A stretch of DNA of 8,823 nucleotides from Escherichia coli (GCF_003334815.1 NZ_QOWO01000064.1), one strand, 5' to 3'; counted from the stretch's first letter, positions 1,637 to 8,823 are shown. A program made the numbers and translations. The notes: a model not told the origin generated them from the letters alone.

Positions 1637-4528
1637 ATGATTGGTACAACACCTTATCATGCGAAATATTTTGCGCATGAACTTTCCATTCTTCATTCAA
1701 ACAATGGGGTGGACCGTCTGTCTCAATCGCTGTTTGATGCAAGCGTAGATCTAAACCCTCATCAAATTGAGGCGGCTCTTTTTGCTATCGAAAATCCGCT
1801 AAGCAAAGGTGTTGTGCTTGCCGATGAAGTTGGTTTGGGTAAAACCATTGAAGCTGGACTAGTGCTTTGCCAGTTGTGGGCTGAAAGAAAACGTAAACTG
1901 TTGATCATTTGTCCTGCTTCACTGCGTCGCCAATGGGCGAGCGAGTTACAGGAAAAGTTCAATCTACCTTCTCAGGTGTTGGACGCGAAAATGTATAGCC
2001 AGCTTCAAAAAGAAGGGATCCATAATCCCTTAAATAATAAATCGATCACTATCATGTCATACCACTATGCTGCTCGGTTAGAAGAGAAATTGGTGGCTGA
2101 AATGTGGGATCTGGTTGTTATCGACGAAGCCCATAAACTGCGTAATGCTCATCGAGAAAGCAACAAAATGGGGCAAGCGTTAAAGCGTGCGCTTGATGGG
2201 CGGAAGAAATTACTACTGACCGCAACGCCTTTACAGAACTCGTTGATGGAACTGTATGGCATGTCGACGCTTATAGATGAACATACCTTCGGCGAAGTTA
2301 AAGCGTTCAGAAAGCAATATATGCAGGCAGATAGCGATATTGCGGAGTTGAAGGGGCGATTGTCGCGTTTTATCAAACGAACTCTACGCAAGAATGTGCT
2401 GGAGTATATCAAGTATACAGAACGTAAAGCGATCACTATTCCTTTCTATCCGAGCGAACAGGAGCAGGATCTTTATGAACGCGTACAAAAATTGCTTGAA
2501 CGTGAGGATAGCTATGCCTTACCAAAACGACACCGGCATCTGACGGGGCTTATACTCAGAAAACTACTTTCCTCAAGTACGAAAGCCGTATTGAATAACT
2601 TGCAGATCCTTAAGACTCGTTTAGAAAGGTTAAAGCTGGAAGGTATCGTTGAAGATGATATGGACATCATCCAACAGATCATAATGGATGATGATCTTGA
2701 AGATGACATCGTTGAAGATGCCGAATCAGTAGCGCCAGATACAGAGTGCAAATCTGTGGATTCAGATGCGCTTCAGGCAGAAATCAATGAGCTGGAATCA
2801 CTCATTGTTAAAGCAGAACAGATTGGCACTGATACCAAATCAAAAGAGTTGCTTTCTGGCCTGGAGCAAGGTTTTGCACAGCTTGCCGAAATGGGGGCTG
2901 CAAAAAAAGTCATCATCTTCACGGAGTCGATGCGAACTCAACAGTACCTTGCACATTTTCTGGAAAACAATGGCTACCAGGGAAAAGTAGTAACCTTTAG
3001 TGGCACAAACAATACACCGCAGGCAAACAAGATCTACCAGCAATGGCGCGAGGAATATCAGGGATCTTCTCGTATTACCGGGTCGGCGCAAATTGATAAA
3101 CGCTCGGCTTTGATCGACCACTTCAAAGATCATGCTGAAATCATGATAGCTACAGAAGCTGCAGCTGAAGGGGTGAACCTGCAATTTTGTTCGCTACTGA
3201 TCAATTACGATTTACCCTGGAACCCACAACGCATTGAGCAGCGTATTGGACGTTGTCACCGATACGGGCAAAAATTTGATGTGGTTGTTATTAACTTCCT
3301 CAATCAGCGAAACCAGGCCGATCAACGCGTTCTTGAACTCTTAACTGAAAAGTTCAGCCTGTTTGATGGCGTGTTTGGCGCATCGGATAGTGTGCTTGGC
3401 AGCATAGAAAATGGTGTGGATTTTGAAAAAAGGATCCAGTCAATTTATGAGTCATGCCGTACCCCCGAGGAGATAGAGCTGGCTTTTGAAAGGTTGCAGA
3501 AAGAGCTGGAAGATGAAATCAATCTCAAGATGCAGAAGACGCAAGAACAGTTGCTTGAGCATTTTGATGAAGATATTCACGATATCCTTAAAATAAGGCT
3601 TGATGAAGCTCGGGAGCGCCTGGATAAAGTCGGTCGTTGGTTTTGGGCCGTGACCTGTCAGCAGCTCAAACAATATGCTGATTTTGATCATGAGCATCAT
3701 CGTTTCACTTTACGTGAATCAGTCAATGAACTGCCTGTCGGGCAGTACCAGCTGTTGCGCAAAGATGGCAGGCAAAATAGTGCGTTACAAATGCAGGATC
3801 ACCACAGTTTTGCATATCGGATCAATCATCCACTGGGTGAGTACGTCATTGACGGAGCTAAAGCCCAGGAGACGAAAACAGCTGAAGTCATCTTCGATTA
3901 CAGTAACCACACAACGAAAGTTTCGGTGGCTGAGCAGCTGAAAGGGCAATCAGGATGGTTAACACTAAATTTGCTTACTGTTGATGCGTTTAACAGGCAG
4001 CAATTTTTAGTCTTTACCGCGAAAACTGACAACGGACGTGTGGTAGATGGTGAAGCTTGTAAACGTCTGTTCAACTTGTCTGCAATAACCAACGAAAAGC
4101 TGGATAATTCGGCAAGTTTAGATGCATTACCTGATGACTTGATCTTACTCAAGAACAGGCAAATTGACGCCAGGCTTGCAGAAGTTTTGGAGCAGAACAA
4201 TGTCCTTTTTGAAGCGGAAAGAGATAAGCTGGAAAAATGGGCTGAAGACATGATCTTTGCGGCGGAAGAAGCATTACGCGATACCAAAATGCAAATCAAG
4301 TCGTTGAAGCGAGAAGCCAGGCTGGCGCAATCGATCGAAGAACAAAAGCAAAACCAGGAAAAGCTTAAGCTCCTGGAACGGCAGCAGAAGCGCCAACGTA
4401 TGGAAATTTTTGACATTGAAGATGAGATCGCCGACAAGCGGGATGAACTCATCAGTGCCCTTGAAGAGCGGATGAAGCAAAAGACGGATATCACCGAGCT
4501 GTTTACCATCCGCTGGAAAGTTATTTAA
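1637..4528 (+). CDS. SNF2-family (DEAH-type superfamily 2) helicase/ATPase, 963 aa; candidate DrmD-like component
   Basis: Motifs are visible in the translation: Walker A GLGKT (nt 1832-1846), motif II DEAH (2123-2134), the SNF2-type motif III TATPLQN, and in the C-terminal lobe motif V IATEAAAEGVNLQ and motif VI QRIGRCHRYGQ (3239-3271). A purine-rich Shine-Dalgarno-like stretch (AGAGAGAGAAAAG) precedes the ATG. GC about 43-47% by hand count. Confidence 0.9.
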   Translation: MIGTTPYHAKYFAHELSILHSNNGVDRLSQSLFDASVDLNPHQIEAALFAIENPLSKGVVLADEVGLGKTIEAGLVLCQLWAERKRKLLIICPASLRRQWASELQEKFNLPSQVLDAKMYSQLQKEGIHNPLNNKSITIMSYHYAARLEEKLVAEMWDLVVIDEAHKLRNAHRESNKMGQALKRALDGRKKLLLTATPLQNSLMELYGMSTLIDEHTFGEVKAFRKQYMQADSDIAELKGRLSRFIKRTLRKNVLEYIKYTERKAITIPFYPSEQEQDLYERVQKLLEREDSYALPKRHRHLTGLILRKLLSSSTKAVLNNLQILKTRLERLKLEGIVEDDMDIIQQIIMDDDLEDDIVEDAESVAPDTECKSVDSDALQAEINELESLIVKAEQIGTDTKSKELLSGLEQGFAQLAEMGAAKKVIIFTESMRTQQYLAHFLENNGYQGKVVTFSGTNNTPQANKIYQQWREEYQGSSRITGSAQIDKRSALIDHFKDHAEIMIATEAAAEGVNLQFCSLLINYDLPWNPQRIEQRIGRCHRYGQKFDVVVINFLNQRNQADQRVLELLTEKFSLFDGVFGASDSVLGSIENGVDFEKRIQSIYESCRTPEEIELAFERLQKELEDEINLKMQKTQEQLLEHFDEDIHDILKIRLDEARERLDKVGRWFWAVTCQQLKQYADFDHEHHRFTLRESVNELPVGQYQLLRKDGRQNSALQMQDHHSFAYRINHPLGEYVIDGAKAQETKTAEVIFDYSNHTTKVSVAEQLKGQSGWLTLNLLTVDAFNRQQFLVFTAKTDNGRVVDGEACKRLFNLSAITNEKLDNSASLDALPDDLILLKNRQIDARLAEVLEQNNVLFEAERDKLEKWAEDMIFAAEEALRDTKMQIKSLKREARLAQSIEEQKQNQEKLKLLERQQKRQRMEIFDIEDEIADKRDELISALEERMKQKTDITELFTIRWKVI

Positions 4529-4548
4529 TTGATTTGAAAGAGAAAATA

Positions 4549-7500
4549 ATGAGTAAGTACAACGAATTAGTTAAGAAGCTAAAAGAAATTTTTCAGATTG
4601 ATCGACCAGAACTGGATTTCGGTATTTATCGTATTTTAAATGCGCGTGCTGATGAAATTAACGACTATCTGGATAATAAGCTGAAGGCCAAAATCCAGTC
4701 TGCGCTGGCGGATGCAGGAAATGCCAATAAATCAGAATTAGAACATCAGTTGCAACTGACAATAAAAGCGGCAACTGATGCGGGTGTAGACCCTGCTGAT
4801 AGCCCAAAAGTACAGGAGCTTAAAAAGCAACTGGCGGCTATGGCATCCGGAGCAAATGAGCATGAAAATGCAGTATTTTCCCATCTGCTCACTTTCTTTT
4901 CGCGTTATTATGACAACGGCGATTTTATCAGCAAACGCCGTTATAAAGGTAATACCTACGCCATCCCCTATTCTGGCGAAGAAGTGATGTTGCACTGGGC
5001 AAATAAGGACCAGTACTACATTAAAAGCGGTGAAAACTTCGCTAATTATTCGTTCAAATTAGAAGACGGTCGTAAAGTTAGCTTTAAATTGCTCGCAGCG
5101 GACACAGCAAAAGATAACCGTAAAGATAATGAATTAGATCGCTGCTTTGTACTTATTGAGCCACATGTTCGTACCAAAATTGATGAAGAAGGCGATGAGT
5201 ACGAACAAGAATATAAGCCAGTAGAAGTGGTGAAAAACTCATCTGTGGTGGACGGTAAACTCGTTGAAACAGAAGAGTTAGTTATTCACTTCGAATATAA
5301 GGCAATGAAAAAGGGCACTAAGCAGGATGCTTTAGTACAGTCCGCCATTTCAACAATTCTGGCAGATAAAACAGTTCAACAGCATTGGGTTGATCTTGCT
5401 AAACGTGCGCCAACAGAAAAGAATCCGTCACGTACAGAGTTGGAGCGTCACCTTACAACTTATACCCAGCGTAATACAGCAGACTACTTTATCCATAAAG
5501 ATCTCGGTGGTTTTTTAACGAACGAACTGGATTTTTATATTAAAAATGAAGTAATGAATCTCGATAATGTGCAAAATGCAGAAGTGTTTGCCAATGTTGA
5601 GAAACAATTGCGCATGATTCAATGTTTGCGTGCTGTTGCGCTGGAACTCATTACATTTTTGGCACAAATTGAGAATTTCCAGAAAAAACTTTGGACTAAG
5701 AAGAAGTTTGTTGTTGGGCATGAGTATCTTGTGTCACTTTCAAATCTATCAGATTCGCTTTACGATAAAATTCGAACTAATAAAGGGCAACATGATGAAT
5801 GGGTTGAGCTTTATGCTGTAAATAAAATTCCTGGATATTCATTTCCATTCACAAAAGATTTCTTGTATAAAAATAATGGTATGATATTGGATACAAAATA
5901 TTTTGATCCGTCATTTAAGGAGGTTTTTTTAACAGAGTTAACTAATGTTGACGATAATTTAGATGGTCTCTTAATTAATTCAGATAATTATCAGGCCATT
6001 AATTTTTTGGAGGGGCGGTATAAGGACTCAATAGACTGTCTTTATATTGATCCTCCGTATAATACTGCGGCTTCAGAAATTTTATATAAAAATGAATATA
6101 AGCACAGCAGCTGGAATTCATTAATGTATGAAAGGATATCTAAAAGCTATAATTTACTGAAAATTTCTGCAATTAATTTTACCGCGATAGATCATGCGGA
6201 ATTATATAATCTTGGTAAGATCAAGGATGAAATCTATGGAGAACAAAACAGGATAGCAGTTGTTACTGTTCAGCATAATCCTAAAGGGCGTAACCAGGCA
6301 AAGTTCTTTTCTGAAAATACTGAGTATATGTTAGTATATGCTAAAGATTTTAATGCTGCTAACTTTAACTCTGTAGCTATCGATGAGGATGTGCTTTTAA
6401 CATTCACAGAACAAGATAATATAGGCCGTTATCGTTGGGAAAACTTTATTCGTGCAAGAACAAGTTGGTCCAGAGCAAATAGACCAAATAACTGGTATCC
6501 TTTATACGTCTCTTCCGACTTAAAATCAATTTCTGTTGATTATGTAGATGGGTATATCGAAGTATATCCTACAACTAAACAGGGGGATTTTTCGTGGAAA
6601 AATATTAAAGAATCATTTGTTGAATTAAATAAAGATAATTATTTTAAAGCTGTAAATGAAAATGGAGAAATAAAAATCTATCATAAATATAGGGAGCAGC
6701 AAGTCTTTAAAAATCTTTGGATTGATAAGAAATATCAGTCTGAGTTTAATGGTACAAATTTACTGAAAAACATACTTGGACAATCACTATTTGATTATCC
6801 GAAATCATTATATGCAGTACAAGATGCAATCAAAATGTCGACACCACACAATGGTATTGTATTGGACTATTTTGCAGGTTCAGGGACAACTTCTCATGCA
6901 GTAATAAACCTTAATAATTCAGATAATCTCTGTATGAAATTTATCAATGTTGAAATGGGTACTCATTTCAATACAGTAGTTATTCCAAGATTGAAGAAAA
7001 TTGGATATTCAAACTTATGGAAACAATGTAAACCAATCGGTAAACCTCAAAAAATGACTATCAAGTATTTGAAACTTGAAAGTTATGAGGATGCTCTTAA
7101 TAATATACAATTACGAAGTTATTCATTGCATCAGGATATTTTCGACATTTTGGTGGAAGATGTAAAATCAGAGTTTGCTCTTAAATATATTTTTGAAAAT
7201 GAATTATTTTATTCACTATTAAATACTGATAATTTCAAAAAACCATTTAACTACGAAATGGATATTGCGACGGATTCCGCCGGTGCCACTGAGCGTAAAA
7301 ACATCGATTTAGTTGAAACTTTCAATTATCTCATTGGCTTACATGTGAAATCCATCGAATCTGATATCGCACGTGGCTATGTGCGTATTGAAGGAACGCT
7401 GCCAACAGGCGAGCGTACCCTTATTCTGTGGCGCGATTGCGACAAGATCGGTTATGAAGAATTGAATAAATATGCCAACCGATTTGATTTGTATGCAAAA

Positions 7501-7653
7501 GAAAACACGTTCGACGTTATCTACATCAATGGCGATCATAACTTACCTACCGCCTTTACCGTTGATGAAGAAGACGGCGAGATTGTTCGTAGCCTGAAAA
7601 TTCGCCAGATCGAACCTGAATTCTTGAACCTGATGTTTGCGGAGGAGGTTTAA
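4549..7653 (+). CDS. Beta-class DNA methyltransferase (N6-adenine/N4-cytosine type, Type III Mod-like catalytic core) with a ~420-aa N-terminal extension, 1034 aa; candidate DrmMI-like component
   Basis: Motif IV DPPY (CLYIDPPYN, nt 6049-6060) precedes motif I FxGxG (LDYFAGSGTT, nt 6865-6891) by about 270 residues, which is the beta-class order with room for a target-recognition domain between them. I place the start at ATG 4549, preceded by AAAGAG; the track starts at an in-frame TTG at 4534, which remains a possible alternative. Only 20 nt separate it from the upstream stop. Confidence 0.88.
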   Translation: MSKYNELVKKLKEIFQIDRPELDFGIYRILNARADEINDYLDNKLKAKIQSALADAGNANKSELEHQLQLTIKAATDAGVDPADSPKVQELKKQLAAMASGANEHENAVFSHLLTFFSRYYDNGDFISKRRYKGNTYAIPYSGEEVMLHWANKDQYYIKSGENFANYSFKLEDGRKVSFKLLAADTAKDNRKDNELDRCFVLIEPHVRTKIDEEGDEYEQEYKPVEVVKNSSVVDGKLVETEELVIHFEYKAMKKGTKQDALVQSAISTILADKTVQQHWVDLAKRAPTEKNPSRTELERHLTTYTQRNTADYFIHKDLGGFLTNELDFYIKNEVMNLDNVQNAEVFANVEKQLRMIQCLRAVALELITFLAQIENFQKKLWTKKKFVVGHEYLVSLSNLSDSLYDKIRTNKGQHDEWVELYAVNKIPGYSFPFTKDFLYKNNGMILDTKYFDPSFKEVFLTELTNVDDNLDGLLINSDNYQAINFLEGRYKDSIDCLYIDPPYNTAASEILYKNEYKHSSWNSLMYERISKSYNLLKISAINFTAIDHAELYNLGKIKDEIYGEQNRIAVVTVQHNPKGRNQAKFFSENTEYMLVYAKDFNAANFNSVAIDEDVLLTFTEQDNIGRYRWENFIRARTSWSRANRPNNWYPLYVSSDLKSISVDYVDGYIEVYPTTKQGDFSWKNIKESFVELNKDNYFKAVNENGEIKIYHKYREQQVFKNLWIDKKYQSEFNGTNLLKNILGQSLFDYPKSLYAVQDAIKMSTPHNGIVLDYFAGSGTTSHAVINLNNSDNLCMKFINVEMGTHFNTVVIPRLKKIGYSNLWKQCKPIGKPQKMTIKYLKLESYEDALNNIQLRSYSLHQDIFDILVEDVKSEFALKYIFENELFYSLLNTDNFKKPFNYEMDIATDSAGATERKNIDLVETFNYLIGLHVKSIESDIARGYVRIEGTLPTGERTLILWRDCDKIGYEELNKYANRFDLYAKENTFDVIYINGDHNLPTAFTVDEEDGEIVRSLKIRQIEPEFLNLMFAEEV
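7641..7648 (+). promoter_or_regulatory. Shine-Dalgarno sequence GGAGGAGG for the third gene, embedded in the last codons of the methyltransferase gene
   Basis: GGAGGAGG lies 7 nt upstream of ATG 7656. The methyltransferase stop (7651-7653) and the next start are 2 nt apart, which suggests translational coupling. Confidence 0.6.
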
Positions 7654-7655
7654 GA

Positions 7656-8669
7656 ATGGCTAAAAAACCGACCACCGGTAAAGCAGTTAAAAAAGAGACT
7701 AACAGCAAGCTGAGCTTTCATAAACAACTGGTTTTAAACCGCTTTATGTTCCATTTTTTCAAAGATGGCACATTGCAAGGTTTGAAGAATCGGTTAGGCG
7801 AGGATCGCTTTGAAGGCATCCATGAAGATGGCCAAAGCTTGTTCTTCCATGAGCTGAGTAACTATTTATTCGAGGTCGATCTAATCGATCTCGATGAACT
7901 GCGTCGTTACGATCTCAATATCGTGCAGCACTGGCAGCAGATAACCGAGCACCGTAATCGTAAAGAAGACACTGTGCTGAACATGAAATATTTTCAGTAC
8001 TTGTCGCTTCTGTTTACCGAGATCTACCTGGACTGGTACTTCAATCGTAAACAGCAATTACTCGATGGGCTAAATAACGAGCTGGCAGCATACAATGCTG
8101 AAAATGATAAAACAGCAAAAGACCGGGCTAATCAGTTCAAATCATATGTTCTGGATGATTTGAATAAATTGGCATACTGGAACGCTACTGGTTCTGGTAA
8201 GACACTGCTATTACATGTCAATATTTTGCAATATTTACATTATTTCCAGAACGGTAATAGCCATCATTATCCGGATAAAATCATCCTGCTTACGCCGGAT
8301 GAACGCCTGTCGAAGCAACATTTAGATGAACTGGAAAACTCAGGGTTTACCCAATACCAGTTGTTCGATAAGAGTAAATCAGCGCCCTTCAAAGGCACGA
8401 TTGAAGTCATTGATATCAATAAACTTGATGATAAAATGGGCGACAAAACTGTTGCCGTTGAGGCATTTGAAGGCAACAATCTGGTCCTGATTGATGAAGG
8501 GCATAAAGGCACAGGAAGTGCTGCTGGTGCCTGGATGCGCCGTCGTGACAAGTTAACTCGTGACGGATTTGCGTTTGAATATTCAGCAACTTTTGGCCAG
8601 GCAGTAGCCGGTGGCAATAATGTGGAGGCAGTTGAAACAGAAATTCAGAAGAAAAAAGCAAAGCTCTGA
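7656..8669 (+). CDS. Helicase-like ATPase containing only the first RecA-like lobe (Type III Res-like / DrmA-like N-terminal region), 337 aa; probably truncated or disrupted
   Basis: Walker A ATGSGKT (nt 8184-8204; GSGKT at 8190-8204), motif II LIDEGH (DEGH at 8493-8504) and a motif III-like SAT (8583-8591) are present. The ORF stops at 8667-8669 with no motifs IV-VI and no arginine-finger region. The following 8670-8732 has stops in all three forward frames. Confidence 0.75.
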   Translation: MAKKPTTGKAVKKETNSKLSFHKQLVLNRFMFHFFKDGTLQGLKNRLGEDRFEGIHEDGQSLFFHELSNYLFEVDLIDLDELRRYDLNIVQHWQQITEHRNRKEDTVLNMKYFQYLSLLFTEIYLDWYFNRKQQLLDGLNNELAAYNAENDKTAKDRANQFKSYVLDDLNKLAYWNATGSGKTLLLHVNILQYLHYFQNGNSHHYPDKIILLTPDERLSKQHLDELENSGFTQYQLFDKSKSAPFKGTIEVIDINKLDDKMGDKTVAVEAFEGNNLVLIDEGHKGTGSAAGAWMRRRDKLTRDGFAFEYSATFGQAVAGGNNVEAVETEIQKKKAKL

Positions 8670-8823
8670 GAGATCCCCTCATAATTTCCCCAAAGCGTAA
8701 CCATGTGTGAATAAATTTTGAGCTAGTAGGGTTGCAGCCACGAGTAAGTCTTCCCTTGTTATTGTGTAGCCAGAATGCCGCAAAACTTCCATGCCTAAGC
8801 GAACTGTTGAGAGTACGTTTCGA

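Follow-up and report, generated by a model that had tools for sequence, protein, structure and literature searches.

A probable Eco86II-type Type III restriction-modification locus of Escherichia coli, with an SNF2-family ATPase gene and a res gene interrupted by IS10

The stretch of Escherichia coli DNA analysed here (NZ_QOWO01000064.1 of assembly GCF_003334815.1; 8,823 nucleotides, called the window below) carries between positions 1637 and 8669 three co-directional genes which, according to our analysis, very probably constitute an allele of the Eco86II Type III restriction-modification locus, composed of the genes of an SNF2-family ATPase, a methyltransferase (mod) and a restriction subunit (res). 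The insertion sequence (IS) IS10 interrupts res and removes the nuclease of its product, so the locus in the window is a disrupted member of the Type III restriction-modification systems. The feature is real and well delimited, and a first-pass annotation, made from the sequence alone, had rightly sensed in it a defence operon. The arrangement as such is already known, since it was published in 2021 and its E. coli orthologue has been biochemically characterised.

Identity of the locus

The genes and their open reading frames (ORFs) are the following.

1637-4528, + strand: SNF2 gene (gene 1), ORF of 963 amino acids (aa)
4549-7653, + strand: mod (gene 2), ORF of 1034 aa counted from the ATG
7656-8669, + strand: gene 3, the 5' part of res, ORF of 337 aa

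The ORF coordinates bear out what had been described for this operon: the genes run in one direction, the gap between SNF2 and mod is 20 nt (TAA at 4526-4528, then ATG at 4549), that between mod and res is 2 nt (TAA at 7651-7653, then ATG at 7656), and the Shine-Dalgarno sequence of gene 3, GGAGGAGG, lies at 7641-7648, within the final codons of mod. A further open start codon for mod, TTG, is present at 4534; the ATG at 4549, which RefSeq likewise takes, is supported as the start by the conserved Mod N-terminus, MSKYNELV. The sequence motifs named in the first-pass annotation were all found, namely GLGKT, DEAH, TATPLQN and QRIGRCHRYGQ in gene 1, DPPY (residues 501-504) ahead of FAGSGTT (residues 775-781) in gene 2, and GSGKT, DEGH and SAT in gene 3. 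The profile searches it had proposed assign SNF2-rel_dom and Helicase_C (Pfam) to gene 1 and N6_N4_Mtase to gene 2, as the sole Pfam domain (about residues 500-809) between long flanks that are blank in Pfam, and PADLOC places gene 3 on positions 7-341 of its 1154-position Type III Res model, REase_III. The idea of a Type III-derived locus was well founded, since gene 2 encodes a Mod of Type III and gene 3 is the 5' portion of a gene for a Type III Res. Gene 3 is not, as had been thought, a helicase-lobe gene in its own right: it represents the first 337 codons of a res gene for 1126 aa, and position 8669 is no natural gene end. Searches of the window for Rfam families and tRNA genes were negative.

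In their work on Type III systems that produce N4-methylcytosine (m4C), Murray et al. 2021 (PMC8259958) described a 'third group' made of Eco86II, from E. coli NCTC86, and BspHIV, and reported that an extra superfamily 2 (SF2) helicase gene of unknown function, located 5' of mod, accompanies Mod-Res in more than 500 genomes. They also demonstrated that the Eco86II Mod alone methylates one strand of the 5-bp site GAGCC to m4C, that Eco86II cleaves about 25 bp 3' of head-to-head sites, and that no peptides of the extra helicase were detected by mass spectrometry of the partially purified active enzyme. The three genes are found in NCTC86 too, and at the same chromosomal position, flanked by CbtA/DUF957 genes on one side and a gene of a phosphorothioate-dependent endonuclease on the other; as the genome of that strain holds one Type III system only, its three-gene locus is Eco86II. 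Protein identity between the window and NCTC86 is 99.0% for SNF2 and 98.8% for Res (residues 1-337). As is typical for the Eco86II/BspHIV group, a nuclease-free SF2 ATPase gene adjoins mod-res on the 5' side of mod, giving the order helicase-mod-res; DPPY precedes FxGxG in Mod; and Res, in its intact form, has Walker A, Walker B and a C-terminal PD-(D/E)xK motif. The allele in the window differs from Eco86II in having another Mod core (residues ~391-830) and an IS10-cut res. The suggestion that the arrangement might be undescribed is superseded by the paper of Murray et al., in which it was presented and Eco86II characterised. In the literature searched we found no mention of Eco86II beyond PMC8259958, the RefSeq protein accessions appeared in no paper found, and two 2025 preprints on modularity and BREX contained no description of an Eco86II-type system that we could find.

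With the classical Type III enzymes EcoP15I and EcoP1I the locus shares the position of mod before res, a beta-class Mod, and a Res built as an SF2 ATPase with a C-terminal PD-(D/E)xK nuclease, and the cleavage by Eco86II about 25 bp 3' of head-to-head sites is another common trait. Unlike them, it includes an extra SNF2 gene, its Mod is about 400 aa longer N-terminally and about 200 aa longer C-terminally, its Res has no sequence-detectable relation to solved structures, and the characterised members of the Eco86II group make m4C rather than N6-methyladenine.

Interruption of res by IS10

The features of the interrupted gene are listed below.

7656-8665, + strand: res 5' fragment, codons 1-336 and two bases of codon 337, out of 1126
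8190-8204, + strand: res motif GSGKT
8493-8504, + strand: res motif DEGH
8583-8591, + strand: res motif SAT
8666-8823, no strand assigned: terminal end of IS10/ISVsa5 (IS4 family), 100% identity over 158 nt

The fragment retains the N-terminal domain and the RecA1 lobe (Walker A, Walker B and motif III) and is without the RecA2 lobe and the C-terminal PD...DxK nuclease. Its residues 1-337 are 100% identical to the same part of the intact protein of E. coli SCU-172, the third gene encodes 1126 aa in the best-matching E. coli genomes, and 93 complete E. coli genomes hold at least 80% of the window, with every best match ending at base 8665. Beyond this point, bases 8666-8823 are identical to IS ends in 1,174 plasmids, where they are annotated as ISVsa5-family transposase; the junction follows ...AAAGCT, and the IS contributes the last base of codon 337 and a TGA stop (8667-8669). 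The target hot-spot consensus of IS10 is NGCTNAGCN, and the nine bp preceding the element, AGCAAAGCT (8657-8665), fit this preference at five of the six specified positions. The complete E. coli genomes listed as best matches are all free of the insertion, suggesting an event that is recent and specific to the strain.

In the intact Res the motifs GSGKT, DEGH, SAT, QxxGRGxR (at 634-641) and PD1024...D1043-P-K1045 are invariant in 38-62 homologues, the last of them, FYPD1024F...D1043-P-K1045 near the C-terminus, being a classical PD-(D/E)xK motif. The combination of SF2 motifs with a C-terminal PD-(D/E)xK, expected of a Type III Res, is present in intact alleles and is broken in the window copy. 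As the RecA2 lobe and the nuclease are lost, restriction at this locus is almost certainly dead, and, as SNF2 and mod are both intact and 100% identical to the copies in intact loci, the source strain most likely still methylates.

Mosaic structure of mod

Mod is divided into conserved ends and an exchanged centre.

Mod residues 1-390: N-terminal extension, conserved
Mod residues 831-1034: C-terminal extension, conserved
5720-7040, + strand: swapped low-GC mod cassette (GC, guanine plus cytosine), residues ~391-830, delimited by comparison of GC content and identity
6049-6060, + strand: motif IV DPPY, inside the mod cassette
6871-6891, + strand: motif I FAGSGTT, inside the mod cassette

The protein matches the PADLOC model MTase_III PDLC03646 over its full length (1551 bits) and is homologous to the Mod of EcoP15I (3e-25). 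It is a beta-class amino-methyltransferase, in which motif IV, DPPY, comes before the target-recognition domain and motif I, FxGxG, and both D501-P-P-Y504 and F775xGSG779 are invariant among Mod homologues; mod lies directly upstream of res on the same strand, an arrangement conserved in related loci. The N- and C-terminal extensions belong to no Pfam family, and nothing significant was retrieved for them in a sequence-profile search of the PDB.

The GC content falls to 0.29-0.34 in the mod core, against 0.40-0.46 elsewhere, and the protein identities follow the same borders. Residues 1-390 are 98-99% identical to NCTC86 and other E. coli alleles (98% to NCTC86), residues 831-1034 are about 79% identical to NCTC86 and other E. 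coli alleles, with 92-100% over the last ~130 residues, and the centre shares only 20-46% with other E. coli alleles (20-44% with Eco86II). Homologues of Yersinia enterocolitica and Proteus mirabilis, at the same time, share 82-89% identity with this centre across residues 501-760. Judged by composition and identity, mod is a mosaic, the low-GC methylase and target-recognition core of which has been swapped between genera with the extensions kept constant. The exchanged cassette takes in the whole methylase core, catalytic motifs IV and I included, and so extends beyond the recognition domain alone; at least four distinct cassettes exist among the E. coli and E. albertii alleles.

The same division emerges from the co-divergence of the three proteins, calculated from pairwise identities over 47 complete trios (46 related loci and the query). 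For the Mod centre no correlation with the other parts was seen (rho 0.06-0.33); co-divergence with Res is rho 0.83-0.85 for the Mod extensions and rho 0.58-0.69 for SNF2. From this we infer that the extensions may be the invariable portion, adapted to the partner proteins, and the centre a specificity cassette open to exchange. With a core only 20-44% identical to that of Eco86II, the present allele is expected to have another specificity, and its target is not expected to be GAGCC. Of 5,426 complete E. coli genomes, 17 have this allele, 152 the SNF2 gene and 190 res (165 near full length); strains with the identical mod include SCU-172, FDAARGOS_536 and A20. No simple-sequence repeats were found in mod, so nothing suggests phase variation.

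The homologue from Proteus mirabilis, P0003, is 82-87% identical to Mod across residues 501-760. Pmi29II, an enzyme from the same species with the site GAACT, was considered as a guide to the recognition site and set aside, as it could not be shown that P0003 is M.Pmi29II.

The SNF2 protein

Two parts can be distinguished in the product of gene 1.

SNF2 residues ~30-640: helicase core
SNF2 residues ~640-963: family-specific C-terminal module, an alpha/beta domain with an antiparallel coiled-coil hairpin of ~110 residues (AlphaFold2 model)

Solely helicase domains are recognised by Pfam in this protein, SNF2-rel_dom (PF00176) and Helicase_C, and its ATPase motifs, among them Walker A with K69, are all invariant across 59 homologues. 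Its best model match is DrmD of the DISARM defence system (PADLOC PDLC02619, 4e-199), covering residues 31-684 only; the NCBIfam model DISARM_DrmD_b gives 667 bits against a cut-off of 950, again confined to the helicase core, and the NCBIfam model RapA gives 166 against a cut-off of 576. Further PADLOC matches are BrxHII (6.7e-74) and HmaA (5.5e-58, 195 bits over the helicase core), and the closest solved relative is RapA.

The C-terminal module, residues 640-963, is modelled with a predicted local distance difference test score (pLDDT) of 86, and nothing significant was found for it in a sequence-profile search of the PDB. It is present in 568 clusters at 50% identity (E <= 1e-30), nearly always at the C-terminus of proteins of ~920-1000 aa. 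Fusions of SNF2 with Mod, sought as evidence of interaction, were not found; the long variants bear nuclease-like, GHKL-like or unclassified modules instead. Of these rare proteins, which share the C-terminal module, P0152 carries a PD-(D/E)xK-like region at its N-terminus, P0187 a helix-turn-helix and a GHKL-like ATPase, P0198 an N-terminus of 530 aa of no recognised type, and P0139 a C-terminal add-on of 500 aa, likewise of no recognised type.

Related loci across phyla

Relatives were collected by scanning conserved N-terminal Mod peptides over one genome per species, which gave at least 494 confirmed cases, and the arrangements were counted in the loci of the best 80 of these.

62 of 80 loci: SNF2-Mod-Res
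4 of 80 loci: Mod-Res-SNF2, all from Pasteurellaceae or Cardiobacterium (L040, L041, L043, L045)
8 of 80 loci: no SNF2, with at least 8.7 kb of upstream sequence present
6 of 80 loci: too short to assess

SNF2 thus adjoins Mod-Res in 66 of the 74 assessable loci, and it stays directly adjacent also in the permuted order of Pasteurellaceae and Cardiobacterium. The hosts belong to Proteobacteria, Chlorobi, Bacteroidota, Planctomycetota, Firmicutes, Verrucomicrobia, Acidobacteria, Spirochaetes and candidate phyla. Among the neighbours of the loci without SNF2 no substitute helicase was found.

In many relatives other genes are embedded between the core genes, with matches to HEC-01A/B, HEC-03B, HEC-06 (GmrSD-like), PDC-S02, AbiD, SoFic and NsnB, and the presence of such known or candidate defence genes inside the trio supports a defence role of the trio itself. 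We saw them in loci L002, L005, L018, L020, L021, L055, L061 and L063. Embedding of this kind is also on record for Hma, BREX, DISARM and Type I systems. The SNF2-Mod-Res family was outside the hosts considered in the guilt-by-embedding study and may be a further source of candidates.

Relation to DISARM, ARMADA and Hma

Class 1 DISARM is defined by drmD (PF00176), drmMI (PF13659), drmA, drmB (DUF1998, PF09369) and drmC (PLD, PF13091), and the first-pass annotation had considered the locus a decayed or interrupted system of this sort, in which drmD and drmMI would be kept, drmA truncated, and drmB and drmC lost. The resemblance is genuine as far as the SNF2 module and the general layout go: PF00176 is present, the SNF2 core is related to DrmD and scores best against the DrmD models (4e-199 and 667 bits, as given above), the order of SNF2, methylase and SF2 helicase recalls drmD-drmMI-drmA, and defence based on self-methylation is common to both. 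Membership does not follow from it, and we regard this identity as scarcely credible. The DrmD_b score stays under the curated cut-off of 950 and concerns the helicase core only, with the C-terminal module of SNF2 lying outside the coverage of the DrmD model; the methylase is PF01555 (beta class, Type III Mod), the only family given by Pfam, and not PF13659, and no DrmMI model is among the 24 PADLOC matches. Neither DrmA nor DrmB nor DrmC could be recognised in the Pfam analysis of the full-length gene 3 and in the flanks of intact E. coli loci: the full-length third gene shows only ResIII/DEAD, no DUF1998, and, as a Type III Res, has a PD-DxK nuclease of its own, and the annotated intact E. 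coli loci are without a DUF1998 or PLD gene within 9-12 kb. The inspection of downstream sequence for drmB and drmC that had been advised revealed no conserved DUF1998 or PLD gene near three E. coli and 46 further loci, the flanks of the 80 related loci share no additional conserved gene family, and in the three annotated E. coli genomes, as in the 46 further loci where the genes were identified by similarity, the intact locus is SNF2-Mod-Res only. The interruption seen in the window is IS10 in res, not a loss of DISARM genes.

Two other families that combine SNF2, methylase and helicase have a similar three-part layout, ARMADA (ArmA/B/C) and Hma (HmaA/B/C), and it is extremely unlikely that the locus belongs to either. 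ARMADA types I and II (Bell et al. 2025; OI-172 of enterohaemorrhagic E. coli) resemble it in the DrmD/BrxHII-like SNF2 protein ArmA, here reflected in the BrxHII match of 6.7e-74, in the presence of a methylase and a helicase-nuclease, and in their occurrence in E. coli genomic islands; however, they need a YprA-family helicase with DUF1998 and a PglX-like methylase, neither of which was found in our locus, and the GajB-like helicase of type II is not here either. Hma (Payne et al. 2021, 2024) is likewise a three-gene operon of SNF2, methylase and ATPase, distributed over many phyla, and is a habitual host of embedded defence genes, including the same HEC families that are embedded in the Eco86II-type relatives, but its protein families are unlike ours: the match of SNF2 to HmaA (5.5e-58) is partial and scores far lower than that to DrmD, and Mod and Res, in place of the 5-methylcytosine methylase HmaB and the ATPase HmaC that Hma requires, give no HmaB or HmaC match at E <= 0.001.

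Mechanism and the role of SNF2

By analogy with Eco86II, the intact form of the Type III system proposed here would act through a Mod dimer that recognises a short asymmetric site and methylates one strand, the product in characterised members of the group being N4-methylcytosine (PMC8259958). On unmethylated sites the SF2 ATPase of Res, in a Mod2Res complex, would drive communication along the DNA, and the C-terminal PD...DxK nuclease would then cut about 25 bp 3' of the site. In the window, where IS10 cuts res after codon 336, restriction would be lost and methylation by the intact mod most likely kept.

SNF2 is outside the core enzyme and is unneeded for methylation or for cutting in vitro. 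It might serve in vivo as an accessory double-stranded DNA translocase acting in trans, which could strip incoming DNA of bound proteins or of anti-restriction factors, or aid long-range communication between sites; this is a tentative suggestion, rather less probable than its opposite, drawn from the analogy with the related SNF2 proteins ArmA and AsaH, which are required for defence in vivo, and from the general protein-displacing activity of SNF2 enzymes. That SNF2 is a genuine obligatory in vivo third component of a widespread Type III family, a motor of the remodeller type, we consider possible, somewhat on the doubtful side. If it is true, the Eco86II-type systems would offer the simplest mechanistic bridge from classical Type III restriction-modification to the SNF2-containing DISARM, ARMADA and BREX-type-3 systems, and the N- and C-terminal extensions of Mod, together with the coiled-coil arm of SNF2, would be docking modules.

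It could also be suggested that SNF2 works apart from the Type III system next to which it lies, either as a defence gene in its own right or as a housekeeping factor of the RapA kind. Methylation proceeds without the protein, which escaped detection in the active enzyme preparation (PMC8259958); it is missing from 8 of the 74 assessable loci, it co-diverges with Res less closely than the Mod extensions do, and RapA is its best solved relative. We nevertheless find this improbable, as SNF2 is adjacent and co-oriented in 66 of these 74 loci across many phyla, including those with permuted order, only 20 nt separate it from mod, the NCBIfam RapA score is 166 against the cut-off of 576, and the C-terminal module nearly always ends SNF2 proteins of this size. 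Another thought would be that the SNF2 and mod pair is retained as an epigenetic or regulatory module, in the manner of orphaned or phase-variable Mods (phasevarions): neither gene is damaged, both match the copies of intact loci at 100% identity, and Type III Mods are known regulators in other bacteria (PMC8259958, discussion). Such a module would lack the simple-sequence repeat tract for phase variation, though, and the absence of the IS10 insertion from the best-matching listed E. coli genomes points to a recent and possibly neutral knock-out; nothing favours selection for the truncated state, and we hold this explanation to be very improbable.

Returning to the locus as an Eco86II allele with an SNF2 partner, several observations weigh against this reading and should be taken into account. 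About 11% of the assessable loci are without SNF2 and have housekeeping neighbours (mfd, polyketide synthase and fatty-acid genes, cyclic di-GMP phosphodiesterase). The role of SNF2 is a guess, methylation being SNF2-independent and SNF2 peptides not having been detected in the partially purified active Eco86II preparation (PMC8259958). The mechanism ascribed to this allele is carried over from the orthologue Eco86II. Res and its family profile have no detectable sequence similarity to solved structures, EcoP15I Res included, so that the Type III status is based on the architecture of the motifs, on the PADLOC model derived from REBASE and on the biochemistry of Eco86II. Finally, one IS end only lies within the window, and there may be a larger rearrangement.

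As a discovery the locus has little weight, its arrangement having been published in 2021, its orthologue characterised and the window copy knocked out, and the remaining interest of this otherwise ordinary system lies in the role of the SNF2 partner. SNF2-family ATPases recur in methylation-based defence (DrmD, ArmA, BrxHII, HmaA, ZorD), and their role is not understood in any of these systems. Here such a motor is attached to the best-understood ATP-dependent restriction mechanism, that of Type III, in a genetically tractable host, and natural variants with and without the SNF2 gene exist, which gives the system value as a model. The constant ends and exchangeable core of Mod make it, in addition, a ready scaffold for specificity-swap studies.

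Flanking region

Upstream of the operon the window contains the following features.

1-46, + strand: 3' end of the cbtA toxin gene (annotation of the identical E. coli SCU-172 stretch)
43-534, + strand: DUF5983 gene (SCU-172 annotation)
551-727, + strand: DUF957 gene (SCU-172 annotation)
833-1086: two short pseudogene remnants, one of a hypothetical protein and one a fragment of a helix-turn-helix regulator, located after the DUF957 gene and before the operon (annotated by RefSeq on identical sequence)
1264-1283, + strand: terminator-like hairpin followed by a T-run (consensus scan only)

The toxin-antitoxin context that had been noticed next to the operon is confirmed by the cbtA 3' end, DUF5983 and DUF957, a stretch typical of a CP4-like integrative island. 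The ORFs at 827-1231 gave no family matches, and the hairpin at 1264-1283 probably ends the upstream transcription unit before the three-gene operon. A nearly palindromic 19-mer, ACAATCWGGWCCTGATTGA, occurs twice with 18 of 19 bases matching, at 1101-1119, upstream of the operon and after the regulator pseudogene remnant, and at 8476-8494, at the Walker B codons of res; this duplication may be due to chance.

Directly downstream of res, and outside the window, intact loci have on the opposite strand a conserved ORF of ~100 aa (23083-23385, minus strand, in L001, where the intact SCU-172 locus spans 13637-23036), which is shared by E. coli and the closest gammaproteobacterial loci (L002, L038, L039, L078) and for which no match was found in PHROGs or PADLOC. 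Just downstream there is also a gene of a restriction endonuclease that binds phosphorothioated DNA, intact in NCTC86 (L083, 19080-19952) and degraded to remnants in other strains (L001, L082), and its presence adds to the defence-island character of the site.

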